Positions 6,214 through 64,000 of a stretch of DNA of 64,000 nucleotides are shown here, in pieces. The notes beneath the pieces were generated by a model. It worked only from the letters and a program-made list of their open reading frames with translations, was not told the origin of the DNA and made no database searches. Position numbers and translations under genes: made by a program. Origin of the DNA: a virus; IMG/VR virus record IMGVR_UViG_3300030493_000012. One strand, 5' to 3'. Within the stretch, counting starts at the first letter, position 1, and each line of letters starts with the position of its first letter.

Positions 6214-6215
6214 TT

Positions 6216-18527: not shown

Positions 18528-18562
18528 TAATTACACGAAAAGCATAGTTGAAAAGTGTAATT
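18528..18562. promoter_or_regulatory. divergent pair of putative late-promoter motifs (GTGTAATTA on -, GTGTAATT on +)
   Basis: TAATTACAC at 18528-18536 and GTGTAATT at 18555-18562, between divergent genes 18510(-) and 18583(+). Confidence 0.7.
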
Positions 18563-27316: not shown

Positions 27317-30300
27317 TATCTCGGTGAAGTATTAGCCGAATAAAGCCTGCCACCGGGTCTTTGTTGTTCATTGATAACTCTCAAAGTCTGCTCTTTAATC
27401 ATCAAAGATAATTGTTTCAATTTCTCTGGCTCAATAGATTTGTCATTAGAACTTTGAGTTGTATCAGCGGTTGTAGTTCCATCGCTACTAGTTGTAATAT
27501 TAATACTGACGTTATTCTCAATAATTTGTTGTGGCGCGGCGGCTGTTTGAACCGGCTGAGCCGCTGGCATTGAGCCTCGAACTGGCGTTGTATATTCTGC
27601 TAAACCGCCATTCCGGTCAATTTGTTTCCGGTTTAGACGGTTAAGATAGTCTTGACCATAATAACTTGTCGCGTTGCTATTTAAAACATATTCACCCGGC
27701 GTTAGGATTGCTGGAACGCTATCTGTGCTATATTGGCTGACGCTACCGCCAGCAGCCCTAGTTACTGGAAAATAGCCTTGATTCATTTGAGTCTTTTCGT
27801 AACTATAACCGCCTTTAGCCTTATCGGCGCTTCCAATTGCCCCGCCTGCAATATTCATAAAAGCAGACATATAAGCGCCTGTCATTCTCTGTCTTTGAGT
27901 GCGCCGAAATTGAGCTAAAGCGTCTCTTTTTTGGCCTTCAAATTGATTAAATTCTCTCAAATAAGAATATAATCCAGCCTCGCGCTGTAATCTTATGGCA
28001 TTTTGAGGATTGTTTTCATCCAACAAAGCCATTGCTGACAAATTTGGGTCAACCAAGGCTTGTCCAGAAGTCGGCCTTGTGCCGTTGTAAACAAACTGAT
28101 TTTGGAGGCTAGAATAAGCCGTTTGGCTATTCATGTTCTCTAATAAACCACGATATTTGCTTGCTGAATTGCGGTTTACAACGAATTCGCCAGCACTTAA
28201 TAAAGCTGGAACGTCATCCATTGTACCAGACCCGCCATAAACAGAGCCGCCGCCAGCGAATTTCTTAATAAAACCGCCTCGCGCCTTTTTATTACCACTA
28301 AATAATTTGCCGATTGTGCCACCAAACAAAGAATCTGTACCTATATCTATTGTTTTAGATAGAATATTCTCAAAAATTGAAATTCCAAATTTTCGTGCTG
28401 CATCAGAAGCGTTTTCTGTGCCATCTACGAACGATTTAAAAGCGTCTTTGAAGGAAGATTTGATTGTGTCGGCGGTATCAACGGCCCCTTCTCGGATGCT
28501 TGTCCACATATCCTCTTTTCCAAATATAAACCTGCTTACAAAAGCGTCTTTAACCCCTCCCAAACCAAAACTTCCATTATTTTCACTTATCTTGATGGCG
28601 TCATTAATATCTAATTCCTGTCTAATTTTAGCGCCCGAACTACCTTTTAAAGCAATATCCAGCCTCTTTTTAGCTGCATCTCTTTCTAGCTCTATTGTCT
28701 TTTTAAGAACTTCTTCTTGAGTCCTTGCGCTTTCTTCGGCGCTGAGGATTCCTTTATCTCTTACAATAATTAAATTTATTTCCTGCCTTTGTAGCTCAAC
28801 AACTCTTGCTCTTGCTTCTTCTAATGCAACAATATATTTTTCAGCACCCGGCTCGTTTTTGTTGACCGTTGAGATTGTTGAGTCAATTAATTTTAACGCA
28901 GATTTAAGTTGTCCAGATTCGACTTGTGTTTGTAGCTGCGGAGCCAATTGGTTAAATTTACCCGCAAATTGAGCAGTGCCAGCGTTTCCGAAAAGAGATT
29001 TTCCTGCTCCAAAAATTCCAGCAGAAGCTTCGTTCCGAATTCCAAAAAGAGATTCTCCAAAACCTCTTTGAGCCGAATTTATTGCCGCTATTCTTGCTTC
29101 TCCTATATTTTGCAGTCCAGTTGATTGGCGCAAACCAAAGAAACTTGATGGCGAAATAAGTCCCTGAGCGTTTGAGAGCTTGGAATCACTGATTAATTTG
29201 TTTAAATCCAGATTTCGAGACTGACCCGCTTCGGCTTTTATATTACTTAGTCCTAGCTTGCCAATATCCGAGGCTGTTTTTAAGGATAAAGCGTTGATTT
29301 GTTTTGTAAAATCAGAAATTTGCTTTAAATTACCAATCTCAATTCTTGTTTGTGTTTGTAAAGATTGGACAATTCTTTTTACCTCTTCTGATTTAACCGC
29401 TATATCTTTTCCTTCGGCGCTTTTAATATCTATTTTTGTTTTTTCTAGCGCATTTAAGGCAGACTCTAGTTCATTGGCTTTTTGTAGATAAAATGCTGAC
29501 AAAGCCTCTCTTGTGGCTTCATTGGCTTGTACGAAATCTGTTCTTTTTGCCTCATCTCTAAGTTTTGACGCTAGACCTTCTACATCTTTAGGTGTCTTAA
29601 TTTTTAATCTATCAAACCTGCCTAATACGTTTGATGCGAAATCGGTGAATTGTCCAGTGTCTAGTGTATCAAATCGTTTTTGCTGAGTTGCTTCCTTGAG
29701 AAAAGAAGAAATTCCGCTAGTTTTTATCTCTTCTTTTATATTTCCGCCTCTTTTTAAAAGCTCGCCTTCGGCTTTTAATTCTTCTAATACAGCCTTTCGA
29801 CTGATTTCAGCGATTGCCAATCCGCCTCTTTGTCTTTCTACTTGCGTTGGCGTTAACGCGCCGATTCTACCTTGCAGTCCTATTTCACTAATTTTAGTGT
29901 TTAAGTTAAAACCTCTTTCTTGGTCTCTCAATCTACTGTCTATTGAAAAATTTCTATTAAAATTCTCAATATCAGATTGTCCTGCTTGGTTTATCAACAG
30001 AGCGGACAATGCCTTTCTGTTTTCGATTCCAAAATTTGTTGGTGTTTTAGCGCTCAGCTTTTCACCGGCCTCAGTTGTCCCTTTTACCAATTTATCAACC
30101 GCAATATTTAATTTCGTTACAAACTCAACAAACGCGCCCTCATCAATATCTTTGAACAAAACCTTGGCTGGGCCGCTTTCTAAAAAGCTTCTAAATTCAG
30201 TTAAATCTGTACTTGCTCCTTTAAAACCAAAAGTGTTTTTGAAGAATCCTTCAAATTGACCGCCGATATCCTCGCCGCGCTGGCCTTCTCTCAAAATTCT

Positions 30301-33300
30301 CCCTAGTTCTCGTCTTGCCTCTGGTGTTTCTTGTAAGAACTGAGAAAGAGATTGCTTTCCTTCTTTTCCGCCCCTTAAATCTAATAAACGACCAAATTGC
30401 GCTCTTGCTTCTTCTTGCTTACCCGGACGCAGCCTTAGCTCACCGCCTGCCAGCCTAGTAACGCCGGAAGAACCAAGCGGCGTCAGCGCTCTGGTTATTG
30501 TTCCAAGCGTGTTCCCCGGTAAATTTTGCACTCTTGTCGCGGCTTCACTGTCCGAAAGTCCCTGTTTCTTTAATTCGTCAAACTGTCGCCTTGAAGTTCC
30601 TATTCCTTGTGATAGAAAATCAGCTATTCTAACGCCTTTTCTGTCTCCGCTTTCAGCTAAAGATGTTCCCGCTTGAATAACGCCTAATTGAGCCGACTTG
30701 ACCTCCATTACGTCAACAATTATTTTATTAACCTGCTCTTTATCACCTTTTTCGAAAGCCTCTATTAATTGTTTTTTTACTGAGTCTGGAGTGTCTGACA
30801 AAATATTTCTTTGTTCAGCTTCCAATCTTCCTTTTTCAATAGTAGAACTAGAAACTCTTCCTTCATTTATATCGTCAAGACGGTTTTGGATAGAAGAAAA
30901 CCTTTGGAATGATTCTTGTAATCTTGCGGTTGAGTTTGTAACCTCTTCAAGTCTTTTTCTAAACTCTGGCAGTTTGTCCGTGATAGCATCAATAATCTTA
31001 ATTCCACCGGCTAAACCGCCGATAGCTGCAAATGCAGGTGTTTTTCCGAAAACCGCGCCTAAAGCAGAGAAAGAGACAACATCACCAGCGGCCTCAACTC
31101 CAGCTTTTCCAATCCTATTTTCTTGAGGAACAAACTGCCCCGCTGTTTGTAATATAATTGGCGCGGCGAAAGAAGTTGCCAAACCAACATTTTGCTGTCT
31201 CTGGCTTAATGCCGATGCGGCTTGTTGTGCGCCCGGTAATTTGTTTTGTAAAGAGGGATTTGACGCGATTATTTTCTGTGCCTTTTCAAGCCTTCTATTA
31301 CCCAGAAAAAGACCGCCAAAGCCGGTGCTTCCGCTAATTAGTTTATTAACTTGCGCTTCTTTAGCTTGCAAATCATAAAACTCTTTTGTTTTTTGTTCAA
31401 CCTCCAATTTTGCCGCCTGCTGCGAAGCCATTTTTTGTCTCAAATCAACCAAAGACTGTCTTCTTTCTAGCGCGGAAGAACCTTTTAAGTCTATCATTTG
31501 TGCGCCAGAGGTCAAAAAAGGAAGATTTCCCATGCTCGAACCAGCAAAAGAAGTAGAAGGCGCGTTTCTTAGTTGTTCAAAGTTTTTAGCAATATTTCCG
31601 AGCTTTGTTCTGACCGATTTCGCCGATTTGGAGGTCAAATCGAATTCTTTCGATAATTCCGCAGAAAATTTACCAACTTCTGACATTTTTATCGAACCAG
31701 ATTCTATTGCTTTTGTTAGTTTTTTGTATGCAGATTCGAATTTATTTTCATCGTTTAACCGCCTAACTCCATACATACCGGGTGGATTTTGCTCAAATAT
31801 AGGCATCGCTCCAGACGCTGCAAAATTTGGAATTAAACCACTGGCAACAAAATTATAAGGATTAAAACCATGAGCAGCCTGAAAACTTTTTTTATAATTA
31901 GTTCCGGCCTTGCTATGCAAAGGAGGAATGATTGCTGGCTGACTCATTCCAAAATCAACCACTTTTTCAGCTTTATTATAAGTGATATTTCCAACGCCTT
32001 TGACATGTAAACTTGAAACTGGCCCCGGCAAATAGCCACCAGCATAAGCACCGGCGCGTTCAATAGCTGGAATTAAACCGTCGCTTTTTGTTTTAATTAA
32101 TTCACCAGTCCTTGTATCTAGTTTTATATTAGACTGCTTAAATCCGGCTATAATTCCCGGCGCTAACAACGCCGCATTTTTTTGAGCAGCAAAAGACCTT
32201 TCAACCTGTGCTAGATATTGTTTTTGAACATCTACTAGCGTTATTTTTTTTGAAATTAATTGTTCGGTTAAGTTCTTCTCTTGAGACAAATAATCAACTA
32301 AATTCTTTTCAATAGACCTTTGCAAGTCAACCTGTGTAGTTATTCCAGAAACGGTCTTAAACGCTTGAAAAAAGTCAGCGCCAAGGCGAGAGGCAATTCC
32401 TTGCAATCCCTTGAAAGCCAAAAACACACCGGGGCCACTCAAAAACTGGCCTATTCCTTCAAGCACTCCTTGGCCTATACTTGCTCCTGTTTCCTCGGCT
32501 CTTTTGTCATTGATTGGTTCTAAAATTAAATCATTTACGCTTCCAAGAAGACTTTTAAGAGGTTTAGAAATAGCTGTTCCACCAATATCAGAGCCTAATT
32601 GTTTAAAATTAACAAACGTTCTATTTACTAATGCAGATAATGTTTCATTTAGCTCTTTACTACGAACAATAGCTTCATCTGTGGCTGATGTTGATGTTTT
32701 TAAGGCGCTGGCGTAAAAAGAATTTTCCTTGCTTAAATCACTTAAATAAGATTTTAAAATGTTAATCTGGAAAACACCACCGACTAATTCTGCTGCTTGA
32801 GCCTTTTGAGCGGCACCTAATCTATCGTAAGTTTTAGCGAAATTTTCTAATACTGTTTGAGCCGGAAGGACATTGTTTTGTATGTCTTTTACGGCAACGC
32901 CCAAATCTTCCAAAGACTGGATGGTATCAGTACGTTGTAGTCTTGTAAAAATCGTTTTTAACGAGTTACCAATTACAGCGCCACCGCGAGCGGTTGTTTG
33001 TTGCGCGGAAGTAACCAAAGCAATCAATTCATCAATTCCGACGCCTGCATCCTGAGCCGAAGAACCTACGCGACGAATCGCCTCTGCCAAATCTTTTGAC
33101 GAAACCGCGAAAGCAGCGTCAACTTTAGCAAATTTACTGACCAGCATTGTAGAGTCAATAACCTGTTTATTGAAAGAATTTAGAGCCGCCGTAATGCTAT
33201 CAACCGCTGCCGCTGAATCCATTCCAGTTAACTGAACCAAAACCAATGCATCTTTAGTTCTTTTTAATGTCTCTTGAGCAGAAAGACCTTGACGAGCTAA

Positions 33301-33750
33301 TTCTGTAGCGGCCTTGGCAACAGCCGAAAATGATTGATTTGTGTTTTTTGCTATGTTAAATAGCTCAACGCCAAAACTTTTCAATCCAGACTTATCGGCG
33401 TTTAAAATGACGTTAATATCTTTTAGTGATTTTTCAACTTCAATAGTTGATTTCACCAACTCTGTCATTGCTCTTTGAACCGAATATAGAGCACCAACTG
33501 AGGCACCGAACGCCAAAACACGCGCATTTGAAGCCTCTAAAGACTTATTAAACTCATTTACAGAAGCGGAAATCCTACCCAATGGCCTTGACATGTTATC
33601 GCCAATAGATAGTTTTTTGAAATTCTTATCTAAATTACCGATGGCACGGTTAGCCTCATTTGCAAATTGGTTTAGCTGTCTCGTACCTTTGGAGGTGTCG
33701 AGAATAACTTCCCATAATACTTGTCCAGCCGCTGCTGTTGATGCTGCCAT
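27313..33750 (-). CDS. tail tape measure protein
   Basis: 2145 aa, Ala/Gly/Lys-rich and helical, with a TP901-type core (ELARQGL, A.VD..TAALN.F, GAVIGNSLKTIF.RL). Twin GGS..DDVPALLS.GE.V.N motifs lie near the C-terminus. Confidence 0.92.
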   Translation of the reverse strand: MAASTAAAGQVLWEVILDTSKGTRQLNQFANEANRAIGNLDKNFKKLSIGDNMSRPLGRISASVNEFNKSLEASNARVLAFGASVGALYSVQRAMTELVKSTIEVEKSLKDINVILNADKSGLKSFGVELFNIAKNTNQSFSAVAKAATELARQGLSAQETLKRTKDALVLVQLTGMDSAAAVDSITAALNSFNKQVIDSTMLVSKFAKVDAAFAVSSKDLAEAIRRVGSSAQDAGVGIDELIALVTSAQQTTARGGAVIGNSLKTIFTRLQRTDTIQSLEDLGVAVKDIQNNVLPAQTVLENFAKTYDRLGAAQKAQAAELVGGVFQINILKSYLSDLSKENSFYASALKTSTSATDEAIVRSKELNETLSALVNRTFVNFKQLGSDIGGTAISKPLKSLLGSVNDLILEPINDKRAEETGASIGQGVLEGIGQFLSGPGVFLAFKGLQGIASRLGADFFQAFKTVSGITTQVDLQRSIEKNLVDYLSQEKNLTEQLISKKITLVDVQKQYLAQVERSFAAQKNAALLAPGIIAGFKQSNIKLDTRTGELIKTKSDGLIPAIERAGAYAGGYLPGPVSSLHVKGVGNITYNKAEKVVDFGMSQPAIIPPLHSKAGTNYKKSFQAAHGFNPYNFVASGLIPNFAASGAMPIFEQNPPGMYGVRRLNDENKFESAYKKLTKAIESGSIKMSEVGKFSAELSKEFDLTSKSAKSVRTKLGNIAKNFEQLRNAPSTSFAGSSMGNLPFLTSGAQMIDLKGSSALERRQSLVDLRQKMASQQAAKLEVEQKTKEFYDLQAKEAQVNKLISGSTGFGGLFLGNRRLEKAQKIIASNPSLQNKLPGAQQAASALSQRQQNVGLATSFAAPIILQTAGQFVPQENRIGKAGVEAAGDVVSFSALGAVFGKTPAFAAIGGLAGGIKIIDAITDKLPEFRKRLEEVTNSTARLQESFQRFSSIQNRLDDINEGRVSSSTIEKGRLEAEQRNILSDTPDSVKKQLIEAFEKGDKEQVNKIIVDVMEVKSAQLGVIQAGTSLAESGDRKGVRIADFLSQGIGTSRRQFDELKKQGLSDSEAATRVQNLPGNTLGTITRALTPLGSSGVTRLAGGELRLRPGKQEEARAQFGRLLDLRGGKEGKQSLSQFLQETPEARRELGRILREGQRGEDIGGQFEGFFKNTFGFKGASTDLTEFRSFLESGPAKVLFKDIDEGAFVEFVTKLNIAVDKLVKGTTEAGEKLSAKTPTNFGIENRKALSALLINQAGQSDIENFNRNFSIDSRLRDQERGFNLNTKISEIGLQGRIGALTPTQVERQRGGLAIAEISRKAVLEELKAEGELLKRGGNIKEEIKTSGISSFLKEATQQKRFDTLDTGQFTDFASNVLGRFDRLKIKTPKDVEGLASKLRDEAKRTDFVQANEATREALSAFYLQKANELESALNALEKTKIDIKSAEGKDIAVKSEEVKRIVQSLQTQTRIEIGNLKQISDFTKQINALSLKTASDIGKLGLSNIKAEAGQSRNLDLNKLISDSKLSNAQGLISPSSFFGLRQSTGLQNIGEARIAAINSAQRGFGESLFGIRNEASAGIFGAGKSLFGNAGTAQFAGKFNQLAPQLQTQVESGQLKSALKLIDSTISTVNKNEPGAEKYIVALEEARARVVELQRQEINLIIVRDKGILSAEESARTQEEVLKKTIELERDAAKKRLDIALKGSSGAKIRQELDINDAIKISENNGSFGLGGVKDAFVSRFIFGKEDMWTSIREGAVDTADTIKSSFKDAFKSFVDGTENASDAARKFGISIFENILSKTIDIGTDSLFGGTIGKLFSGNKKARGGFIKKFAGGGSVYGGSGTMDDVPALLSAGEFVVNRNSASKYRGLLENMNSQTAYSSLQNQFVYNGTRPTSGQALVDPNLSAMALLDENNPQNAIRLQREAGLYSYLREFNQFEGQKRDALAQFRRTQRQRMTGAYMSAFMNIAGGAIGSADKAKGGYSYEKTQMNQGYFPVTRAAGGSVSQYSTDSVPAILTPGEYVLNSNATSYYGQDYLNRLNRKQIDRNGGLAEYTTPVRGSMPAAQPVQTAAAPQQIIENNVSINITTSSDGTTTADTTQSSNDKSIEPEKLKQLSLMIKEQTLRVINEQQRPGGRLYSANTSPRY

Positions 33751-33772: not shown

Positions 33773-33781
33773 TAATTACAC
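33773..33781 (-). promoter_or_regulatory. putative late-promoter motif GTGTAATTA upstream of the tape measure gene
   Basis: TAATTACAC on the + strand, 22 nt before ATG 33750. Confidence 0.7.
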
Positions 33782-38730: not shown

Positions 38731-38803
38731 AAATTATTCCTTAATTATTATTGTTACTTAAAATTACACCAAAAACACTCTTTTGATAATTAAAATATCT
38801 ATT

Positions 38804-44024: not shown

Positions 44025-44075
44025 AGTGTAAAATAAAGTTTCTCCTTTAATTACACCAAATCCTGCTTCTAAAAA

Positions 44076-44872: not shown

Positions 44873-44930
44873 ATCTTTACAAGAGATTACACTTAATGTT
44901 ACGAAAATATCTTGACTTTCGGAAGTATTT

Positions 44931-49662: not shown

Positions 49663-49692
49663 AGCTATAAAATAAAAATATCTAATTGTTAA

Positions 49693-50562
49693 TTACACCT
49701 TACTTAATAAAAACTCTAGCTTTTCTTCAATTGAAGCAATTTTCATGTCTATGATTGTGAAGGCGTGAGTTATTAAAATTTCCTGATTTTTGGCGTTTGG
49801 TAGAATGATTGGCAACTGAATATTTGGTGTAAAATCTGAATAAATTTCGTAACCAACAGCAGTTTTCGATTCTCCTGTATAAGTTCCATTAATAATTAGC
49901 TCCCACTTATTAACAGACAAATCTCCTTGTTTTAGCCCGCTTGGTATAACTGAATCAACTAAAATCAAACTCTCTTTTTCTGAATTAACAACATTTCGGA
50001 CTGTCACTTCTATAAATTTCTTTTGTGGTATGGCGTTATATTCAATATCCAAAACAGCACCAGAACCAGAGCCTCCTTCCATCATTCCAACTTGAGGATA
50101 ATTCAAATAAATACCCTTTTCGACTAATCCTATTCTTTGAATTTCACCATTTTCGGAAACTTGGTTAACTTTAATCTGAGTTACTTTTGTTTGGTTATCA
50201 AACTTACTTAGTGCCAAAACGCCACCCGCCACAGTTAAAACATCACCAACTTTATAATTTGAACCAGCATTTTTTATACTGTTAACTGTTAATAATTCGT
50301 ATTCGTTGTAAGTTAAAATAGCTTTGTCGCCTCTGAATATCTCAGCCCCACAGTTGCCTTTTATTTTGATTTGAAATTCATTTAAAACCTCAAATTTCTG
50401 GCTATAAGACAAAGGATTTGTTTTAATTACCTGATAAAAACAGGAATCGGAGCTAAATTTGATAAAACTACCTTTTTTAACAGATTGCCAAGAAGCAGAA
50501 GAGTCGCTTATTACTCTGCTTGAATCTTTACTTATAGAACAAGTGCCTATCGAATTTTTCAT
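49693..50562 (-). CDS. putative virion structural protein
   Basis: Beta-rich, with YKVGDVLTVAGG and GGSGSGAVLDI motifs; downstream of the fibre gene. Confidence 0.5.
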   Translation of the reverse strand: MKNSIGTCSISKDSSRVISDSSASWQSVKKGSFIKFSSDSCFYQVIKTNPLSYSQKFEVLNEFQIKIKGNCGAEIFRGDKAILTYNEYELLTVNSIKNAGSNYKVGDVLTVAGGVLALSKFDNQTKVTQIKVNQVSENGEIQRIGLVEKGIYLNYPQVGMMEGGSGSGAVLDIEYNAIPQKKFIEVTVRNVVNSEKESLILVDSVIPSGLKQGDLSVNKWELIINGTYTGESKTAVGYEIYSDFTPNIQLPIILPNAKNQEILITHAFTIIDMKIASIEEKLEFLLSKV

Positions 50563-53649: not shown

Positions 53650-53682
53650 ATTATGCCTTATTCCTTGTGCTTAATTACACCG

Positions 53683-55098
53683 CTAATATAAAAGTTGGTA
53701 GTTATCGTACAACATAAACTTGCTTGAATTATCCTCTTGTAAAAGGTAATCTCCACTTTCTTGTGTCAAAAATCCTGCAAAAACTTGGTCAGAAAATCCT
53801 GTTGATGTATTCAAAAGTCCGCTAATAAACAAACCTTTAGAATAATCATCTAAATCAATTTCTGTAGCAAAGTTTAGTGTGGCCACCATATTTGAACCAA
53901 CCCCAACTGAAAAATCCGAAGATATAAATTTACAGCCTTTAATGTCGTATCTAACACCAATGCCTTCTTGATAATAAGTTGGATTTTCAAGCTTGATGGC
54001 CAAATCATAATATTCGTTCTTTTCATTAAGCCGAGCTAATGAGCCTGTCATTAATTCGTTAGCTAAAATTCCAAATGAACAAGTTACTGGAACTGGAAAC
54101 TTAATTGGCCTATCTGCTGGAAATCTATGCCCAATTTGATTAATTTCTTCTCTTGGCAAATTCAAATCTAACGTATATCCTTGAATTGCAAGGTTTTCAA
54201 TGTTTAACAGCAAATCTTTTGAGCTAGAATTATTAGAAGCAACTACTCCTGTGCCATTAATAGCATTTAAATCATGTCTTGGTCTTGAAGTTAAATCAAT
54301 TTTAATATCACCGGGCAATAAAAGCGGAACTAAACTCATTTTATTAACAGAAGGTATGGCAAAATGCATACCGCTGATACTTTCTGCTGTTTTATTGTTT
54401 ATCGCCGGAACGACACAGCCGCTTCCGCTTGATAGATATTCAACATTATAGCACGAAAATGAAACGCTAACTGCTGGAGCCGCACCAACCTCTCCTTTGG
54501 CAGAATAAGAGTTCAAATAACTATTTCCAAAGGCGAAAACGCCATAATTTGGACTATCTGGAGCTATTTGTTCTTGTCCGGTGCTAAAATTATTTAAATC
54601 ATAACCCTCTTGCCTTACCGCCACAAAGAAATTGCGACAATCTCGGTTTTTGAAAGGCCATCTGATTGGATTAATTTCTCTGTCTTCGGTTCTGTCTAAG
54701 AATCCGCTAATACAACACACACCATAATTATTGCTATAATAAGGAGCGTCATTTAAAAAAGGTTGTGCGTAATTGCAATAAAACCCAAGCCTTAATTCAT
54801 TCAAAATACCAGCCTGAACATAATCAAAACTCAAATTTACAGTTGGCGCAAAAATTGGCTGGCTATCTAAAGAAGCTTTTTTGCCTACAGCCTGTTGTGC
54901 AACTCTATTTGTTTGAATTGAATAGCCTACCGACTGAATTCTGTTGATTTCCTTTAATAGATTATAATTAGCGCCAGAACCATGAGAACTTGAAACCGAA
55001 TCGTTCAAAACTCCTAAATCATTAATAAAATGATAGCCAGTACAAGGTGCTGGCCCAGCAAATACTCCTAAAGTATTGTATATGATGCGATTACGCAT
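53683..55098 (-). CDS. tail-tube-like paralogue of the 383-aa major tail protein
   Basis: MRNRIIYNTLGVFAGPAPCTGYHF versus MARNRTIYQSEAVYVGPSPATGYHF. Shared RIQS, FGN..L.SYS.G.VG, LLPGDI and IQ.Y..D.NL.R motifs. ATG 55098 overlaps the portal stop. Confidence 0.7.
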   Translation of the reverse strand: MRNRIIYNTLGVFAGPAPCTGYHFINDLGVLNDSVSSSHGSGANYNLLKEINRIQSVGYSIQTNRVAQQAVGKKASLDSQPIFAPTVNLSFDYVQAGILNELRLGFYCNYAQPFLNDAPYYSNNYGVCCISGFLDRTEDREINPIRWPFKNRDCRNFFVAVRQEGYDLNNFSTGQEQIAPDSPNYGVFAFGNSYLNSYSAKGEVGAAPAVSVSFSCYNVEYLSSGSGCVVPAINNKTAESISGMHFAIPSVNKMSLVPLLLPGDIKIDLTSRPRHDLNAINGTGVVASNNSSSKDLLLNIENLAIQGYTLDLNLPREEINQIGHRFPADRPIKFPVPVTCSFGILANELMTGSLARLNEKNEYYDLAIKLENPTYYQEGIGVRYDIKGCKFISSDFSVGVGSNMVATLNFATEIDLDDYSKGLFISGLLNTSTGFSDQVFAGFLTQESGDYLLQEDNSSKFMLYDNYQLLY

Positions 55099-57134
55099 TA
55101 TTTTTTGCTCCAATAAAGGAGTGAGGCTGTATAATCATCTAATTGAAACTCATAAGCCAAACCTTGAATTTCTTTTACTCTGTCTGGATTTTTGTCCAAA
55201 GGTTTTTCAAGATATTCTGGCATTTTAGAGGCCCAGCTTTGAACTTCCTCGTTTGCAATAATGCAAGCGGCAATATCTTCTGCTACTTCGTTTTGTTCGT
55301 CACTTAATTTCTTTAATTTGAATTTTTTCTTTAAAGAAGTCTTAATTTCAGCCATTAACATATCGGCAGCTTTAATGTTATCAGTTAATTTTTTCAAACT
55401 GTATTCATCGCTGCCGCCCAAAGGCTTAATTTTCTTGGTTGTTTGAGGGGCTGGTGTGCCCGATGGCCTGCCATTCACCTTGGCAGAATCTTCTTCTTTC
55501 TTTACGCCGCCAATTAAAGGTTCATAGAATCCTTTGTCTTTATATTCAACAAATTTAGCCTGATTTTCCAAAGACTCTTCTGGATTTGGTAATTTGTAAG
55601 TGTTTATGGCTTCGATAGTTTCGGATGGCGTTAAAATACCAATTTCGGCTAGACGAGTATAAATACGCGCATAATCAATTTCATCTTTGAGCCTAATTTC
55701 TTGAAAATCTGGCTTTGGATAGGTTTTGAAGCCTAATTCTTTGCTAATTCTTTTAATTTCAGGAATCAAAAACTCGTCTTTGAAGATTTCTCTTGCTTGG
55801 CGCAGTCTTTCAACAAAGATTTCAACTGATATTGATTTATTGGAGTATTTTTCGCCACTTGTATTGCCGCTAATGATGTTATTTAGGCCAATAGCAATAT
55901 CTCTGTCCAACACTTCATACTTTTTGGGGTCTAAAATATCACCGATTTCAGGAATAACGAACTTTGCATCGGTAGTAAAATCAGCCACCAGAACACGACC
56001 AACACTTTGGTTTTCAAAGATTGTTTTTAGTGCTTCGATGTTTTTAGCGTTAACTGTATAGTCGCCATTTTTGCTTTCATAGCCAGTTTTGACCAAAAGA
56101 ACAACCTGTTGCATGGTTCGACAAATCTGAGCGTCCATGCGTTTCATTTCTTCTTTTCTATTAATGTCATCCAATACGCAATAACCTAAAGGCACAGCAA
56201 AAGGCTCATAATCCTGTTTATTATAGGCCACATAGTACAAATCCTTCTTACTTAAAGGCATTAAAATTGAAGTCGAAACCTTTTCTTTGATTTGTTTTTT
56301 TACTTCTGGCGCTAATGAGTCAAAAATTCGTTTGTCTTCATCTGTTTTAGCCTCACGAAGCCTTTGAACCTCATAATCAGTTAATTCTTTGTAAAGGACT
56401 GGTGCTAAAAAGGTCGTGGAGCCGCCCATTAAAATATCTGTGGGATTTAAGACAATGTATTTTGATGGAATGTTGTAAGTAGCTCCTTCTGAAAGACTTG
56501 CGCCATATTCTTTGGTTATTTCATTAACTGCATTATCATTAAGTTTGACATTCAGAGTATAGGTAAAAACATTACAAGACCTAAATAATTCACGGAAAAA
56601 CTGTCTTTGAAAGCCATTCATATTAATAGCTTTGAAATAACTATCAAAGAAATCGCGTGTTTTTTTGTTGCCTTTTGTCAGATAGATTGGCCCAGAGGCA
56701 AATTCGACCATCAAATCAATGATGTTTCGATAGATTGAGAAATTGTAATAGCATTTTTGGCACAGCAAAACAGCGTCTTTAATACTAACATAAGTATTGC
56801 CACCGTAATCACTTTTACTAAAAGGAGCAATGCCATCGGCGATATTTTGAAATCTATGTGCTGGCTCGGTAATTGCCGACTTGTTACCTCTCGTTGAGGC
56901 TTTTGTCATTTTAACGCCTTCAAACAAATCAACAGAAACAGGCTCGGTTCCTTGGTTTAGTTTAACTAACGGATTTGGCGCTGGTTGAGCCGCCAAAGCA
57001 ACTTGGACATCTCTTATAACCACTTTACCATCAACAACCTCGGCGTTTGGAATTTTACCAGCCTTGTAGTGCCTCCATGCTGTTGTAAAGGAAACTCCTT
57101 TTTCGTTTGCGTATTGACCCAAAGACTTGTTCAT
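55098..57134 (-). CDS. portal protein with N-terminal IS607/MerR-type HTH extension
   Basis: Portal-like core (YRNIIDLM.EF, FFRELFRS.NVF, PLG..VL.DI..K, YTRLAEIGILTPSETIE) near terL. N-terminus SLGQYANEKGVSFTTAWRHYKAGKIP. Confidence 0.8.
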   Translation of the reverse strand: MNKSLGQYANEKGVSFTTAWRHYKAGKIPNAEVVDGKVVIRDVQVALAAQPAPNPLVKLNQGTEPVSVDLFEGVKMTKASTRGNKSAITEPAHRFQNIADGIAPFSKSDYGGNTYVSIKDAVLLCQKCYYNFSIYRNIIDLMVEFASGPIYLTKGNKKTRDFFDSYFKAINMNGFQRQFFRELFRSCNVFTYTLNVKLNDNAVNEITKEYGASLSEGATYNIPSKYIVLNPTDILMGGSTTFLAPVLYKELTDYEVQRLREAKTDEDKRIFDSLAPEVKKQIKEKVSTSILMPLSKKDLYYVAYNKQDYEPFAVPLGYCVLDDINRKEEMKRMDAQICRTMQQVVLLVKTGYESKNGDYTVNAKNIEALKTIFENQSVGRVLVADFTTDAKFVIPEIGDILDPKKYEVLDRDIAIGLNNIISGNTSGEKYSNKSISVEIFVERLRQAREIFKDEFLIPEIKRISKELGFKTYPKPDFQEIRLKDEIDYARIYTRLAEIGILTPSETIEAINTYKLPNPEESLENQAKFVEYKDKGFYEPLIGGVKKEEDSAKVNGRPSGTPAPQTTKKIKPLGGSDEYSLKKLTDNIKAADMLMAEIKTSLKKKFKLKKLSDEQNEVAEDIAACIIANEEVQSWASKMPEYLEKPLDKNPDRVKEIQGLAYEFQLDDYTASLLYWSKK

Positions 57135-57139
57135 GCAAG

Positions 57140-57200
57140 TATTTACACTTAATTTTCACTTTTGAAAATTGAATTTTCATTTTCTGACTTTTGGTGTAAT
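57140..57200. promoter_or_regulatory. divergent late-motif pair (GTGTAAATA on -, GTGTAATG on +) flanking AT-rich inverted repeats
   Basis: TATTTACAC at 57140-57148, 5 nt from the portal ATG; GTGTAAT at 57194-57200; AATTTTCA-cttt-TGAAAATT at 57151-57170. Confidence 0.55.
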
Positions 57201-57240
57201 GTTTAGTGGATAGATAAATAAACAATCATAACTAAAACTT

Positions 57241-57465
57241 ATGCCGTTGCCCTCTCCAAAAAAATCACAAAATAAAAAAAGTTTTCTCTCTTCGTGTATG
57301 GCTAATCCAACTATGAATCGCGAATTTTCTGACAATAAAAGGCGATACGCGGTATGTAACAGCCTCTGGGAGAAGCACTTAAAGAAAAACAGTGCCGAAG
57401 AATTAGATTTCGAAGAAGTAATGAAAGAAGAAGAGAAGTGTCCTGTCTGGATTATTGACAACTAA
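57241..57465 (+). CDS. small head-associated-type protein (MP.P.P...F.S.CM...EF.D..RYAVC..W family)
   Basis: This motif is often seen in small phage proteins and protease N-termini. It is the only + strand gene in the packaging block. Confidence 0.6.
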   Translation: MPLPSPKKSQNKKSFLSSCMANPTMNREFSDNKRRYAVCNSLWEKHLKKNSAEELDFEEVMKEEEKCPVWIIDN

Positions 57466-58364
57466 AGTAAATTCTTAGAATAAGCTAGTTGTAAGTCAAT
57501 TTTGGTAATTTCGACTGTGGAAAGCAACTTCTGGATAATTCTGGCTGCTTCGCCTCTGTTGTGAACGAACAAAAATTGAACATTCGGAAAGCTTTGCACA
57601 CACTCTCTGACGTTATGAAAGATAAAATCTGGTGAAACCTTGGTTTTCGATTTTATCCAAGCTAATTCGTTGAAATTCAAGGCTACTTCAAATTTTTCCT
57701 CTATTAGCACAACCATTTGTTTGTTGGCAATTAAACTTCTTTGAAATTCTCTGGATAATCTGTCATAACCAGTTCCAAATGAGGAAATAAAATCAATTAA
57801 GGATTTTCGTTCTATAAAAAGCTCTTTAGCTTCGGAAGTATAATCTCCATAGTCTAATTTGCAAACTTCTGTTGGTAAAGCTAAATTTAACCCCTTCTGT
57901 TCGCGTGTATCGGTAATAATTTTGTCTAATTCAACAGTATGGAATCTAAAATCGTCATAATCATAAAATCTTTCCAACAAACCTAGCTCTTTACATAAAC
58001 CCAGATACTTTTGAGGAAATATTTTGTCATAATAAGCTATCGGAGGCAAATCATCTAGGCTTTTGATTTCAACATAAGATGGAACATAGACAATTTTGCC
58101 TTCATTTTTTCTCTGAATCAATAAGTTTCGACAATATTCCTGTTTTTTGTCTAAAGGCTGTAAATTAAGCCATTGCTTGAGGTTGGCTCGATTGATAAAG
58201 TCCTGCTTGAAGTATTGCTCCTGATTGCGAAAAGGAATAACCTCCTTGGTCAACAAATCAAAGCGTGGGCTATATTGATGAAAATAAGACTCTTGGCTTA
58301 GTTTATGTTCACGCCAGAAATGCTTGTTATCTTTAACTTCTTGGTTGCAAATTTGACAAATCAT
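57462..58364 (-). CDS. ERCC4/XPF-family nuclease with N-terminal C2H2-like zinc finger
   Basis: IITDTREQK, LDYGDY and FIERKSL.DF are the ERCC4 signature; CQIC...HFWREH at the N-terminus. Confidence 0.85.
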   Translation of the reverse strand: MICQICNQEVKDNKHFWREHKLSQESYFHQYSPRFDLLTKEVIPFRNQEQYFKQDFINRANLKQWLNLQPLDKKQEYCRNLLIQRKNEGKIVYVPSYVEIKSLDDLPPIAYYDKIFPQKYLGLCKELGLLERFYDYDDFRFHTVELDKIITDTREQKGLNLALPTEVCKLDYGDYTSEAKELFIERKSLIDFISSFGTGYDRLSREFQRSLIANKQMVVLIEEKFEVALNFNELAWIKSKTKVSPDFIFHNVRECVQSFPNVQFLFVHNRGEAARIIQKLLSTVEITKIDLQLAYSKNLL

Positions 58365-60266
58365 TTAGATTAAGGTTGGCGCAAACATTTCGGTCTTTTT
58401 AGCTTCTAGTTTAGTGAAAAACATATCAAAATATATCTTAGCCGCCCAATTAGCCATCAATAAACAAGTATAATTATCGCGCCTAGCTCTATTTACTGAT
58501 TTATCGCGTCTTAATTCTTGAGGCAAATCATATTGCAAAGTGCCTTGTGAAGTGGCTTTTACCTCAATAAGACCCAATTGAGCCTTGGTTTCGTCTATCC
58601 ATTCGTCTTGTTCATAAATCATTTCTGCCGTGGCTGAATTGTCGTCAATTTTTTCACCATTCTTATCTGTGTATTTAAAAGGTAATTTGACTTCAATATA
58701 ACGCTCAAACGCCTGCTTGTTAGCCTGACATTTTGAGCCAAACCATACTTTTTCAGCAGAAATTTGGTTATGGAGGCTTTCGTTCATGTGTCTAATTGAC
58801 ATAGAATGGAACTTTTGAGCATAAATGAAAGTTTTAGAGCTTTGATTATACTGATTTTTGGCTTTCTTAATTTCATCAATATAAGCGCGAGGCTCTTCTT
58901 CATCTAAATTAGCGTCAATAAAACCTAGCTTAATGTTTTTGTCTTTGGCAATAACAGATTCATTATAACCAGAAATAAACTCCGTACCAGAAGCATCAAT
59001 AGCACAGAATATGATATTAAACTGTGTTAGGAGGAAAGTAAAATAATCATAATGGTCTTTTAATTCACCACCCGCTCGACCATAAGTATGGACTAAGGTT
59101 ATTTTACGCTCATCAAAATTAACTAAATATACGCCCATCGCAAAAAAGTCCGATGATTTACTTGCTGAATAAGAAGGGTCAATTGTTAGAATATAGCTGG
59201 AATTTTTGTCACCAATAATTTGTGTAGTGGGAAAATTACCAACCTTAATCGTGCAATCTTGGAGTTTTTTGACATTGAAATAACTATCGCTGGCGTCTGA
59301 GAACAAAGCCTTGTATTCGCGCTTAAAATATTCAGAATTTTCGCCAATTGAAGTTTTAGCTGCTTCAATTTGAGTATAGTCCATGAATGAACCCTTTGGA
59401 ATCGCTTCATAGGACATCCTGATTGCAAAATAGCTAGGACGGTCTTTCTCGTCCTTTACTGCTGGAGGATTTTCAATGTTTTCAATGATTGATTGATATA
59501 ACTCATAAAGATATTCAAATTTATAAGAAGCAGAAGACAGAATGTGGTATTTGTTTTTTGGGAATGATATTCTATCGGCCTCAGTAATAACTCCAGCGGC
59601 AATAAGTTCATCTTCTCTGGCTCTAATCATTGATTCTTGACTGAAATCTTGTTTAGCTGTTAAGAATGGGCGAATTACTAATTCTTGAATATCTTTTGTA
59701 ATCAATAAACCTTCGTCCACGCATACGCACGATGCGCGTGTGCCGCGTAAGCCATCACCCCCGCTACCAGATGTTAAAGGCAAAGCAAACACTTCCGAAT
59801 TAGCCGGGCTTGGAATTTTGAGCCTAAAAATATCATTACCTTTTCTCAACGAGTCTGGAAAGCATTGTTTTAATAAAAAGTTCTCTTTATTGTTAATCCA
59901 CTTATCGCACTCTTCCAAAATAGCTCTTGAACGACGAAAGTTTGCAGAAATGATACAAAGCTTACTGTTAAAGTGAAAAATTGGATACAGTAAAGCAAAC
60001 ACGCTCAGCAAAAAAGATTTGCTCGAACCCCGCCCTGCTACAATAATGCCATTGTCTCTATATAACATCGCCTTCAAAATTAACTCTTGAATAGGCTCAA
60101 GTTTAATCTTAGTAAACAAATAAACCATGAAGCCTAAATTATATCTTAAGAATTTTGCCAAAGTAATTCTTGCCGTTACGTCATTCAAGGTTCCCGTTAA
60201 TTGCTTAACCTCTTCATTGAAATCTTTAACGCTTACAGTCTTTTGTGCTCCGGTGTACCAAGCCAT
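58365..60266 (-). CDS. terL: terminase large subunit
   Basis: Walker A GRGSSKS, motif LRGTRA..V.VDE, LSSAS, REY.A.F, nuclease TIDPS...SDF, and RRDNY. Confidence 0.9.
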   Translation of the reverse strand: MAWYTGAQKTVSVKDFNEEVKQLTGTLNDVTARITLAKFLRYNLGFMVYLFTKIKLEPIQELILKAMLYRDNGIIVAGRGSSKSFLLSVFALLYPIFHFNSKLCIISANFRRSRAILEECDKWINNKENFLLKQCFPDSLRKGNDIFRLKIPSPANSEVFALPLTSGSGGDGLRGTRASCVCVDEGLLITKDIQELVIRPFLTAKQDFSQESMIRAREDELIAAGVITEADRISFPKNKYHILSSASYKFEYLYELYQSIIENIENPPAVKDEKDRPSYFAIRMSYEAIPKGSFMDYTQIEAAKTSIGENSEYFKREYKALFSDASDSYFNVKKLQDCTIKVGNFPTTQIIGDKNSSYILTIDPSYSASKSSDFFAMGVYLVNFDERKITLVHTYGRAGGELKDHYDYFTFLLTQFNIIFCAIDASGTEFISGYNESVIAKDKNIKLGFIDANLDEEEPRAYIDEIKKAKNQYNQSSKTFIYAQKFHSMSIRHMNESLHNQISAEKVWFGSKCQANKQAFERYIEVKLPFKYTDKNGEKIDDNSATAEMIYEQDEWIDETKAQLGLIEVKATSQGTLQYDLPQELRRDKSVNRARRDNYTCLLMANWAAKIYFDMFFTKLEAKKTEMFAPTLI

Positions 60267-60269
60267 AAA

Positions 60270-61448
60270 TTATGAATTAATTACTCCTTCATCTAAACCC
60301 CAAATTTGAATATGCAAATCATCTAAACTCTTAATTCTTTGAATTTCATCTTTTAGCTTAGATTTTCGTACCTCGGCTAATTGTATTAATTGGTTTCTTT
60401 TGTCTTCGTTCTTCCAAGCTTCAATTAACTGAATTAAACTGGCATTTTCTAATACTCTATTCTTAATCCTATCATTTCTTGTACCTTCAAGATTTTTCCA
60501 AGCTGCTGATTGGCGTTTTTGGTTATCGTCCATCTCTTTACGCAAATTTTTAATGTCTTCAACTAATGACATCGAGATTTTTCGGCCTTCTGAATCATCG
60601 GCACAAGCAGATTTATAAGCCTTTAAGTCCTCTAGTTCGCCCTGCATATCTGTCAAAGCCACAATATCGCAACAAACATTACACACCAAGTCTAGCTCAA
60701 TCTCTGACAAATCGGGTTTATCCCAAATAAATCGAATATATGACTGTTCGAACAGTTCTTTGTTTTTTGGGTTTTTGTAATTATTAATCAACATTATATA
60801 ACGATACATGTGGCAAAACCTAATCAAAGACTTCATGCAGGTCTGTAGTTTAGGATTGTTATCAATATCATCAACGTTAATAGCGTTCAAAATATATTTA
60901 TTAACACGAAAAGCGGCTTTTCTAATTGTGGTCGGTGGCTCATAATCACCTTTAGAATTTTCGTTATTATTAGTAGCCTGACTGCCTAATTCATTTTTAA
61001 TATAATCAAGCACCAACCTTACTTCACCGCTGCCAAAAGAACATTCTTTCTTGAAGATAATATTGGTCATTTCTATTACCTTCATGGTTTTACAGTTGGC
61101 GGCAACAAATTCTTTCTGTTCCTCTGTTAAAAATGGTTTATCTTTGGTTTTGTTCTTTAATTCTTCTTCTAATTTGGTTTGGCGCTCGGTTAGAAAGGTT
61201 TTAACTGATTTAGAATACCTGCTTCTGCCATCCAGCTCCAATTCTGTCAATTCACCAAACGCCTCAATTACTAATTCTCGAATAGAAGGAGGATTGTCTT
61301 TGCGGCTGTTCCATAAATTAATGATTTTAGCCTCTTGTTCTTTTGTTAAAACAGAGTCAATGACAAAAGTAGCGGGCTTAACCTCTTGTTTTGGAGGCTC
61401 AATAACTGGCGGTTGTTCGAATAAACTAATATCTTCTTCTATATCCAT
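60270..61448 (-). CDS. hypothetical protein, candidate small terminase
   Basis: Immediately upstream of terL, with two LT.EQ-initiated helical repeats and a coiled-coil C-terminus. Confidence 0.45.
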   Translation of the reverse strand: MDIEEDISLFEQPPVIEPPKQEVKPATFVIDSVLTKEQEAKIINLWNSRKDNPPSIRELVIEAFGELTELELDGRSRYSKSVKTFLTERQTKLEEELKNKTKDKPFLTEEQKEFVAANCKTMKVIEMTNIIFKKECSFGSGEVRLVLDYIKNELGSQATNNNENSKGDYEPPTTIRKAAFRVNKYILNAINVDDIDNNPKLQTCMKSLIRFCHMYRYIMLINNYKNPKNKELFEQSYIRFIWDKPDLSEIELDLVCNVCCDIVALTDMQGELEDLKAYKSACADDSEGRKISMSLVEDIKNLRKEMDDNQKRQSAAWKNLEGTRNDRIKNRVLENASLIQLIEAWKNEDKRNQLIQLAEVRKSKLKDEIQRIKSLDDLHIQIWGLDEGVINS

Positions 61449-61453
61449 AATCT

Positions 61454-62122
61454 CTAAATGTCGAAATCTTTATTATAAACCAACTCTCTGGCTTGACGGC
61501 TAATAGCTTTTCTTATCATTTTCAAATACTTATGGCCGCGAGCCATTTCAACTTCTGTCTGATAACCAAGCAATTTGACGACTTTTTCATCATCCAAATT
61601 ATCAATAAAACACCATTTGTAGATTTTGAACTCATAAGGGCGCAAAACCAGTTTCATTTTTTTATTCAATTCACGAATTGCAGGCTCAACATCAGTAATT
61701 TCACCTGATTTTTCATAAACCTCCTTCTGATGGTTCTCAATAGGCAAAGGCATCTTAATATCGTGTGCGAATTTTTTGTTTTTGCACCATTTCAAGAATA
61801 AAGGACAACTTTCGCATTGAGTGCCATAAAGTTCACATAAATCGCCACCTTGGTTAAATTCACAGGCATTACAAGGCTTAGAATAGACCGAGAAATTATT
61901 ACGAATTAAATTACTTATCTGGTTTGAAATGATAGCATTGAGCCAGTTAACTAAAGGCTTCTTTTGGTCATATAAATGCCATTTTTTCCAAATATGAAGG
62001 CGTAAAATTTGCGCTACATCATCATAATCCATTGATGTTAAAGAAGTTAGAGTCCACTTTCCGCGCCTTTTCTTGATTTCGGTATCAATTGTGGCGATTG
62101 AGTCTTCAAAAGTGATAGGCAT
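61454..62122 (-). CDS. phage-encoded ECF-like sigma factor with Cys-rich linker
   Basis: Region 2: DYDDVAQILRLHIWKKWHLYDQKKPLVNWLNAIISNQISNLIR. Region 4: LRPYEFKIYKWCFIDNLDDEKVVKLLG. Six Cys lie between them. Confidence 0.75.
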   Translation of the reverse strand: MPITFEDSIATIDTEIKKRRGKWTLTSLTSMDYDDVAQILRLHIWKKWHLYDQKKPLVNWLNAIISNQISNLIRNNFSVYSKPCNACEFNQGGDLCELYGTQCESCPLFLKWCKNKKFAHDIKMPLPIENHQKEVYEKSGEITDVEPAIRELNKKMKLVLRPYEFKIYKWCFIDNLDDEKVVKLLGYQTEVEMARGHKYLKMIRKAISRQARELVYNKDFDI

Positions 62123-62141
62123 ATAATAGTATCTTATACCT

Positions 62142-62171
62142 ATTTTAACCTACCAAAGTTCCGAAAATCAA
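62142..62171 (-). promoter_or_regulatory. sigma70-type promoter TTGATT-N18-TAAAAT upstream of the sigma gene
   Basis: On the + strand, AATCAA at 62166-62171 and ATTTTA at 62142-62147. Confidence 0.5.
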
Positions 62172-62173
62172 AG

Positions 62174-62932
62174 TTATTTTGCTGGAAACATCGGCTCAAC
62201 TCTGCTGTCATCAAGTGTTTTCAGAATAAAACCTAGAATATCAGACCTTTTAATGTCCTCGTCCCCTAACGAAAAACAATAAATTCCATTATCTCTTGAT
62301 TGCTGATTATCAAAAAGGTCATAAATTCTTTTAAATGCTCCTTGTTTTTTAGCGGGCAAATCTGTTTGTGAAAAGTCACCAACAAAGACCATTTTAGACT
62401 TCATACCATATCTTGTCAGTAAAAGTTTATATTCACCAAAAGTATAATTATTGGCTTCTTCCATTAAAATGTATTTAACAGCCCAGCTTAAACCGCGAGC
62501 AAAATTAACAGGAACAAAAGTTACTCTATTGTCTTGCTGGAGTTTTTGATTATCTTCGGCCTTTAATAATTCTTGACATTTATCAGTGAATACTTGATAA
62601 TAGGGTAATAGCTTGCTAAGAAGGTCGCCTTTCAAGTAACCCAAACTGGCCGAATCAGAGACTTCTAATGCGGTTCTAACGAAAATAATATCAGAGACTT
62701 TCTTTGTTGATAGTAATTTTAATCCACAATAAGTTGCCAAAATTGACTTGCCCGTTCCCGCATTCCCGTTTACAAATACAATTTTTGATTTGCTATCTAA
62801 GATGGTATCAATAATTTCTTTCTGTTTAGTTGTCCAAGGCAATTCTTTTATGAAAATTGAGCCTTTGAATTTATCTCTTTGTGGAATCGTCGGTGAATTG
62901 TCTTTTAGATAAGAAACTTCTTGTTTTTGCAT
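62174..62932 (-). CDS. phoH: PhoH-family ATPase
   Basis: GNAGTGKS, LGYLKGDL..K..PY, FARGLS, EEANN, LTR.G..SK.V.VGD..Q.DL. Start placed at MQKQ (62932), downstream of GTGTAATTA at 62941-62949. Confidence 0.9.
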   Translation of the reverse strand: MQKQEVSYLKDNSPTIPQRDKFKGSIFIKELPWTTKQKEIIDTILDSKSKIVFVNGNAGTGKSILATYCGLKLLSTKKVSDIIFVRTALEVSDSASLGYLKGDLLSKLLPYYQVFTDKCQELLKAEDNQKLQQDNRVTFVPVNFARGLSWAVKYILMEEANNYTFGEYKLLLTRYGMKSKMVFVGDFSQTDLPAKKQGAFKRIYDLFDNQQSRDNGIYCFSLGDEDIKRSDILGFILKTLDDSRVEPMFPAK

Positions 62933-62939
62933 ATTTAAG

Positions 62940-63998
62940 TTAATTACACTCAAGAGGTTGCGGCTGGTGAACCTTTTTCCATCTATGGCTCGACTCTAAG
63001 TGCTTTATTAGATGCAATAGTTTATGTTTCATTATATAACCGTAAGTAGCCATGTCGTTTTTGATAAAATCTTTCAGTGTTGTGTATTTTCCAACAACCG
63101 CCGATATGTCGTCTATGGTGCGCGGTCTTCTTGGCTTATCGCGCATGTGCTCAATAGCGGTATCAATCAATTTCATTTTCCATAATCTATGATAAACCTT
63201 TTTCTCTTTATCTTTAAAATCTCTAAATGATGAATAGCTTTTAGCAACATTAAGTAAATCTTCTTTATTATAAATTTTAGAAAAAACATCGCCAACCTTA
63301 TAATTTAATATATCACTTTCGGTAATACTTTTGTTGCAAATTTTGTTTATCTTGTCTAAATTACCGACCAACTGTTGTTTTACATCTTCTTCGTATTTTC
63401 GATTGTTCTCTCTAATGTAAATAATGTTAATTTTCTTTTCTGCAAACTTTTCCAGCTTAAGAGCATCATTTTTATTATCAAGATGCCAACCTTTGCCGTT
63501 GTACTCAAAAGCTAAATTAAAATCTGGATAATAAACATCAACCTCATAAGGAGGAATGATTTTTCGACTATTGTATATAGCTTTGACACCTAAAATTCCA
63601 TCCATTATATCTTGAAGTATCATTTGCGGAATACTAAAACTACAAACCGCCATGTGACCGCAAATCGCCTCCAAAAAGCCGGAGTTTCTAGCTACTTGGT
63701 ACGCGGAACCATCTTTTGTTTGAAATTCTGCTCTCGACTTGTATTTCAAAGCAATTTCTTTTAATAAATCAAACGTTAAATCTCTTCCTAAAATTGTTTT
63801 ATTTCTTTTTACTAAAAGCTCTTTTCTAGCTTCCGTCTTTTTTCTTTCAAACTGCTCAGACCTCTGTAGTTTTAACCTCCTTGCCTTTGCTACAATAAGA
63901 GACTTCTTACATCCAAGTTCTGTAGAAATTAGTTGTGTTGAAGTATTTGGGTATAATTCTATTAATCTATTTGTTTTTTCGTCCGTCCATCCAAATGG
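62940..63998 (-). CDS. Vsr-like / PD-(D/E)XK putative homing endonuclease with HTH and three helical repeats, 5'-truncated
   Basis: The frame is open to the window edge (PFGWTDEKTNRLIELYPNTS...). PYEVDVYYPDFNLAFEYNGKGWH; repeats KYKSRAEF..KD..AY, SYSSFRDF.DK...VY and KYTTLKDFIKND..TY. Confidence 0.7.
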   Translation of the reverse strand, partial: PFGWTDEKTNRLIELYPNTSTQLISTELGCKKSLIVAKARRLKLQRSEQFERKKTEARKELLVKRNKTILGRDLTFDLLKEIALKYKSRAEFQTKDGSAYQVARNSGFLEAICGHMAVCSFSIPQMILQDIMDGILGVKAIYNSRKIIPPYEVDVYYPDFNLAFEYNGKGWHLDNKNDALKLEKFAEKKINIIYIRENNRKYEEDVKQQLVGNLDKINKICNKSITESDILNYKVGDVFSKIYNKEDLLNVAKSYSSFRDFKDKEKKVYHRLWKMKLIDTAIEHMRDKPRRPRTIDDISAVVGKYTTLKDFIKNDMATYGYIMKHKLLHLIKHLESSHRWKKVHQPQPLECN

Positions 63999-64000
63999 AT

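Follow-up and report, generated by a model that had tools for sequence, protein, structure and literature searches.

Portals are described as sequence-blind channels (PMC9611059), and it is the small terminase (TerS) that is credited with recognising viral DNA. What, in that case, is a DNA-binding domain doing at the N-terminus of a portal protein? The question is raised by the gene for protein P0001 in IMG/VR virus record IMGVR_UViG_3300030493_000012, from an uncultured phage of ~180 kb; we analysed a stretch of 64,000 nucleotides (nt), here called the window. The product begins with a helix-turn-helix (HTH) domain akin to that of IS607 TnpA serine recombinases, followed by a linker and the portal. 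We are highly confident that this HTH-portal fusion is real and functional, and tentatively propose that the HTHs form a ring of tethered DNA binders on the outside of the portal. The parts of the gene are the following.

55098..57134, minus strand: whole portal gene (P0001, 678 amino acids), a single open reading frame (ORF) with homologues and a predicted portal fold
57009..57134, minus strand: residues 1-42, IS607-TnpA-type winged HTH (wHTH; MerR/excisionase class), from the AlphaFold2 model, profile search, BLASTP, fold comparison and the ratio of nonsynonymous to synonymous substitution rates (dN/dS)
56904..57008, minus strand: residues 43-77, variable linker rich in proline and alanine, predicted to be disordered (predicted local distance difference test, pLDDT, ~30)
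56784..56903, minus strand: residues 78-117, N-arm conserved throughout the portal family, with invariant R82, N84, N97, G101, P104 and F105
55098..56783, minus strand: residues 118-678, portal core (wing/stem/clip/crown region) and C-terminal helical domain, from VIA-align and Foldseek
57142..57148, minus strand: GTGTAAA promoter-like box, 7 nt upstream of Met1

The ORF is uninterrupted over its 678 codons. Searched as a whole, the protein matched no portal or HTH family in Pfam, PHROGs or NCBIfam and no sequence in the PDB, and tblastn against 50,697 cultured-phage records returned nothing; it has more than 2300 metagenomic homologues, and its sequence family is not curated in any of the three libraries. 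The identification comes from the predicted structure, an AlphaFold2 model of moderate quality (mean pLDDT 62.7) built from 49 homologues. All matches listed by Foldseek among solved structures were portals (best E 3e-5), and the top 50 entries of VIA-align were 50 portals, with Z from 13.8 (PhiTE) to 7 over model residues 117-537. Over the same residues, the portals of PhiTE (9cc7), Pakpunavirus P7-1 (11bp), P23-45 (6qjt), T4 (gp20) and SPbeta (YonE, 9pha) share the fold at Z 13.8-11.8, and they also share the position of the gene beside that of the large terminase (TerL). By predicted fold and by its place in a packaging module, P0001 is a portal. From the fold, it would be expected to assemble as a dodecamer at one capsid vertex, and the assembled ring would bear twelve tethered HTH copies. 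What sets it apart from these tailed-phage portals is a DNA-binding domain at its N-terminus, found in no solved or cultured-phage portal searched.

The affiliation of residues 1-42 emerges only when relatives are pooled. Alone, the window peptide gave E 0.12 with NF033518 (IS607 transposase; model positions 2-40) and E 0.023 with DUF3853 among curated models, and MerR_1 was not matched in a Pfam scan of the N-terminal peptide; a word-based search with residues 1-50 returned solely the closest relative. We built an N-domain profile from five portal N-termini and scored it against 1.84 billion (1.84e9) representative proteins. It retrieved 369 proteins at E<=1e-3, with IS607 transposases among them at E 1e-10 to 1e-6. 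At least 27 of the best 150 profile matches carry the YARVS serine-recombinase motif; all eight YARVS proteins that were tested scored 116-184 bits on NF033518 transpos_IS607 (cut-off 110), and a Resolvase domain was present in each of the four of those NF033518-positive proteins that were scanned against Pfam. By BLASTP, window residues 1-50 align without gaps to transposase P0129 with 19/38 identities (50%, E 2e-13), residues 5-42 covering the TnpA N-domain (NF033518; PMC4058570, PMC6188088). Portal HTHs and TnpA have the conserved columns L5, A9, Y/F16, A19, W/Y20, G26, I28, A31 and G36 in common. N-domain profiles gave chance matches or none among PDB sequences. On this evidence, the portal N-terminus is homologous to the MerR-type DNA-binding domain found at the N-terminus of IS607 TnpA serine recombinases, and it is exactly this module that has been described as a MerR-family domain in TnpA (PMC4058570). 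P0001 itself is not a transposase, since it lacks the serine-recombinase catalytic domain (no Resolvase match) and shares with TnpA the DNA-binding module alone.

The predicted structure is in keeping with this. Residues 1-42 fold with confidence in the AlphaFold2 model as strand-helix-helix-beta-hairpin, as in TnpA; pLDDT is 87-91 for the domain within the full model and 84-89 for the domain modelled alone. The best structural matches of the isolated HTH are BldC (6amk, Z 6.4), the Pukovnik excisionase Xis (4j2n, Z 6.2) and a P2 DNA-binding protein (Z 6.2), followed by the excisionase RdfS (8dgl, Z 5.5), and then Tn916 Xis and MerR regulators (Z 6.4-4.5 overall). The best of these (BldC, Pukovnik Xis, RdfS) span 48-49 residues at Z 6.4-5.5. 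Such small wHTH proteins line up on repeated DNA motifs as arrays of bound monomers; unlike the portal domain, they are free-standing regulators or recombination directionality factors and not parts of virion proteins. Because the domain is tiny, such Z values are modest, and the IS607-type identity of the HTH is carried by the sequence. The wHTH is followed by the disordered linker and not by the long dimerisation helix or the effector domain of MerR regulators. Among 14 HTH-portals, the linker between HTH and N-arm varies from 25 to 75 residues and is unrelated in sequence between lineages. The invariant columns of the N-arm, in contrast, were seen across 49 sequences, and the N-arm is common to portals with an HTH and to a clade with lysine-rich N-termini. 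It is not folded in the monomer model (pLDDT <50), and its ordering probably awaits ring assembly or contact with the capsid.

Several of these points had been anticipated in an earlier note, made from the sequence alone. The peptide and frame that it quoted are exact (residues 1-42 at 57009-57134, with Met76 at 56909), as is the Pro/Ala linker that it described, and its assignment of the downstream protein as a portal agrees with the structural matches and the packaging context. Its IS607 TnpA-like HTH is borne out as well, with the qualification that the single peptide was too weak and a profile was needed.

The same note had suggested a shorter form starting at the internal Met76. This codon lies just ahead of the conserved core, but the four close relatives have Leu, Leu, Thr or Ser at this position, so that a conserved short form is unlikely. 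Upstream of Met1, only seven codons, none of them a start codon, separate the in-frame stop from the start. Over residues 1-42, 32 nucleotide differences separate the gene from that of the closest relative (L001, 72% identical at the protein level), 22 of them at third codon positions, which gives a dN/dS of ~0.05, with dS saturated; the two alternative frames of the same stretch contain 4-10 stops in all five genes. The codon pattern indicates that the HTH extension is translated and under purifying selection. The promoter-like box just before Met1 is a further pointer. In the window, 10 of the 23 copies of GTGTAA[AT], often GGTGTAATTAA, lie <=40 nt upstream of gene starts (14-39 nt), and a GTGTAA box also precedes the portal ATG by 11-45 nt in seven related loci of both clades (L001-L006, L011). 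Probably, GTGTAA[AT] is a late promoter element for which the phage uses a sigma-like factor of its own, and it implies very short leaders; a box of this kind before the portal gene fits initiation at Met1.

How widespread is the fusion? Only 5 of the 120 best full-length portal homologues carry the HTH; the remaining 115 start with a Lys-rich peptide (e.g. MSKKTKK), with a net charge of +1 to +6 over the first 15 residues. A profile search added 14 further portal-family representatives with an N-terminal HTH (nine full-length or nearly so, five fragments), each forming its own cluster at 50% identity, and in all at least 15 divergent portal clusters at this level carry the domain. On a tree of the portal core, the HTH sequences sit on long branches (0.5-1.9 substitutions per site) and the Lys-rich group is a shallow clade; one or two changes suffice to explain presence and absence of the HTH, and, as the tree has no outgroup, it is compatible with an ancestral as well as a gained HTH. 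Tree and clusters together mark the HTH-portal as a trait that a deep and diverse branch of uncultured phages has stably kept. This corrects the earlier idea of a captured HTH: at least 15 clusters and one or two changes on the tree do not agree with a one-off capture in this phage. The portal HTHs also have a signature of their own: Arg17 occurs in 0/19 portal HTHs versus 13/19 TnpA, and Arg21 is kept in 17/19 portal HTHs versus 6/19 TnpA, counts that are not phylogenetically independent. This fits a single origin with constraints of its own.

The earlier note had held that portals do not normally carry such a domain. In agreement with it, no HTH-portal was found in the cultured-phage records or in the literature searched for such fusions, and the tblastn matches of the N-domain in cultured phages were confined to IS607-type transposases, from Thermus phages TMA and YS40, with no portal among them. 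The architecture looks undescribed so far. The same HTH does occur in IS607 transposases, in short stand-alone ORFs, in tandem copies and in a LAGLIDADG-like fusion, and this variety of settings marks it as a mobile DNA-binding module. Proteins listed for two to four tandem copies or for the LAGLIDADG-like fusion are P0121, P0122, P0123, P0126, P0132 and P0125 (the last being the fusion). In another locus (L009), an HTH-only ORF of 89 amino acids at 6001-6270 (plus strand) lies directly upstream of, and overlaps, a TnpB gene (Cas12f1-like_TNB) at 6257-7327; the pair looks like an IS607-like element with TnpA reduced to its DNA-binding domain.

What might the domain do on a portal? In the reading that we prefer, to which we give a probability of about 0.35, the portal would carry an external ring of twelve tethered DNA binders that captures or holds DNA in packaging. 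Twelve IS607-type wHTHs, each on a floppy linker of 25-75 residues, would ring the portal. They would still bind DNA, as suggested by their homology, the conserved positions that they keep and their net positive charge, and they would sit on the outer, terminase-facing side, by analogy with T4 and phi29. Such a collar of individually weak binders could locally enrich phage DNA around the procapsid, or keep the DNA end in place at the vertex while the genome is packaged and the neck attaches.

Different lines of evidence favour such a collar. The portal HTHs keep all family-wide conserved positions, with a net charge of +2 to +4. At the ends of the transposon, many copies of IS607 TnpA bind arrays of several short motifs (PMC6188088), and this multi-copy, short-motif binding suits a device that works by avidity. 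The DNA-binding domains of small terminases, with the same fold (Z 4.4-4.5), are a further precedent. In the sister clade a Lys-rich tail occupies the corresponding position, which points to nucleic-acid affinity of the portal N-terminus as a conserved need. As for location, in T4 a Hoc protein fused to the N-terminus of gp20 was labelled from outside, at the portal (PMC9026906), and the phi29 portal exposes its N-terminus to solvent at the outer end and binds the packaging RNA (pRNA) with it (PMC1636484). The phi29 connector gp10 is the closest parallel in another respect as well, since it has a nucleic-acid-binding element at the extreme portal N-terminus, in 12 copies, that is needed for packaging. 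Its basic tail resembles the Lys-rich tails of the sister clade; it differs from the present case in being an unstructured basic peptide with an RNA partner, in place of a folded wHTH on a long linker.

A number of points weigh against an external DNA-binding collar. No repeat or binding-site array was found in 56900-64000 or in tandem-repeat scans, and no target site was found; the genome ends lie outside the window. The Lys-rich clade packages its DNA without an HTH. The Arg17 typical of TnpA is missing from all 19 portal copies, so base-specific reading may be altered or lost. The N-terminus could face the capsid interior instead, and in other portals it contacts the interior or is cleaved, as in lambda gpB. 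Finally, a conserved gene upstream of the large terminase gene (60270-61448, see below) may, on a weak lead, be a candidate small terminase.

In a bolder version, the portal itself reads the packaging signal or the genome end and the recognition job of TerS has partly or wholly moved onto it; we consider this improbable. Two small-terminase DNA-binding domains resemble the isolated HTH in fold class, at Z 4.5 and 4.4 (lambda-like TerS; 7lxs, 6hn7), and TerS presents DNA-binding domains in many copies on a ring that recognises phage DNA for packaging (PMC9611059). Such low Z values establish no kinship, however, and no sequence relationship was detected; library scans of P0001 gave no TerS family match, and the protein has no TerS-like oligomerisation core. 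The ring here is the portal and not a TerS oligomer, and it could serve as scaffold in place of that core. If the portal does read the genome, it would provide a third route, besides TerS and the pRNA/terminal protein of phi29, for coupling the right DNA to the procapsid.

The rival that survives best, though still unlikely, has the N-terminus pointing into the capsid, where the HTHs would grip the packaged genome (for example the end that was packaged first, or the ring of DNA that surrounds the portal) or where the prohead protease would remove the domain. The disordered linker and the conserved N-arm could follow the inner capsid wall, and Lys-rich tails, as in the sister clade, would likewise be suited to touching packed DNA. 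Several phages have their portal N-termini at the interface of capsid and portal, and the N-terminus of lambda gpB is lost. The precedents from T4 and phi29, however, put the portal N-terminus outside (PMC9026906, PMC1636484), and a domain bound for removal would not need the TnpA-like conservation of its recognition helix.

We regard it as doubtful that the wHTH has lost DNA binding and acts as a protein-protein adaptor recruiting the terminase, a scaffold or a neck protein to the portal. The distinct Arg17/Arg21 signature could be read in this way; small wHTH domains have at times been put to use in protein contacts, and a CbpM-like protein is among the structural matches of the HTH. What speaks for retained DNA binding over an adaptor is that the family-wide conserved positions and the positive net charge are all kept.

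Equally hard to favour is a moonlighting regulator, in which unassembled portal or a released N-terminal fragment would bind promoters, for example its own divergent region, and time late or early expression. The portal gene indeed starts at a divergent promoter region that holds the following element:

57164-57178: perfect 15-nt palindrome GAAAATTCAATTTTC, between the divergent GTGTAA boxes of the portal gene and of a small opposite-strand ORF (57241-57465)

The closest relative carries another perfect palindrome, TTGCAAATTTGCAA, in this position, although its portal has the same recognition helix. This makes simple autoregulation, which the earlier note had entertained, unlikely. Besides, it would be odd for a regulator to be tethered to a structural 12-mer, and no second or split HTH copy was found in the window or in L001-L004, nor within 10 kb of two Lys-rich portals. 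An 11-bp operator-like box considered as a possible target is absent from the window and from all loci fetched.

Very improbable, in our view, is a neutral passenger, a functionless leftover of an IS607 or homing-endonuclease insertion before the portal gene. The same HTH does travel with mobile elements (IS607 TnpA, the HTH-only ORF before TnpB, the LAGLIDADG-like P0125), and these phages are rich in mobile (homing) endonucleases. Against this, the domain is under strong purifying selection, has been kept over the long branches and the many clusters described above, and adjoins no recombinase or endonuclease remnant. An annotation artefact, with translation starting at Met76 and the HTH frame an untranslated leader, is hardly credible, for although Met76 sits just before the conserved core, it is missing in all four close relatives, while the upstream frame shows codon-position bias, low dN/dS and stop-ridden alternatives and begins next to a promoter-like box.

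A portal with twelve such HTHs, kept under selection in a deep lineage, suggests that the portal vertex can directly choose, capture or hold DNA. The Lys-rich tails and the pRNA-binding tail of phi29 point to nucleic-acid binding by portal N-termini as a wider, little-studied theme, and the fusion shows the IS607 DNA-binding module reused outside transposition. As a small soluble domain, the HTH offers a readily testable object.

The surroundings of the portal gene are those of a packaging module with a conserved order: a sigma-like gene, a gene for 360-390 amino acids, the large terminase gene, an ERCC4 nuclease gene and the portal gene. In the window, these neighbours are the following.

61454-62122, minus strand: gene for a sigma-like factor at the head of the module, conserved in relatives (Sigma70_r2, 26.3 bits at a cut-off of 24; phrog_1740)
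60270-61448, minus strand: conserved gene for 360-390 amino acids, upstream of the TerL and ERCC4 genes in all relatives; its only lead is a protein-atlas neighbour with YonG_N (score 0.81)
58365..60266, minus strand: large terminase gene (PHROG 2 at 5.8e-13; Terminase_6N)
57462..58364, minus strand: gene for an ERCC4-type nuclease, between the terminase and portal genes (PF02732, 7e-08; phrog_3490, 2.6e-15)

Synteny of the portal and large terminase genes is kept in L001, L002, L005 and L006. The gene for the ERCC4 (XPF/Mus81-type) nuclease lies beside the large terminase gene in every relative fetched, with the order of the two swapped in the Lys-rich clade; the nuclease may resolve branched DNA before packaging. 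The start-proximal copies of the GTGTAA[AT] box are spread over the window.

57142-57148 (minus), 57194-57200 (plus), 53674-53680 (minus), 49692-49698 (minus), 44886-44892 (minus): start-proximal GTGTAA[AT], part 1
44050-44056 (minus), 38763-38769 (minus), 33775-33781 (minus), 18530-18536 (minus), 18555-18561 (plus): start-proximal GTGTAA[AT], part 2

One further gene concerns the virion as a whole.

27313-33750, minus strand: tape measure protein of 2145 amino acids (PhageMin_Tail, E 1.5e-27)

A single-chain RNA polymerase had been considered for this large protein and was rejected, as the PhageMin_Tail match identifies a tape measure. A tape measure of this length implies a very long tail.

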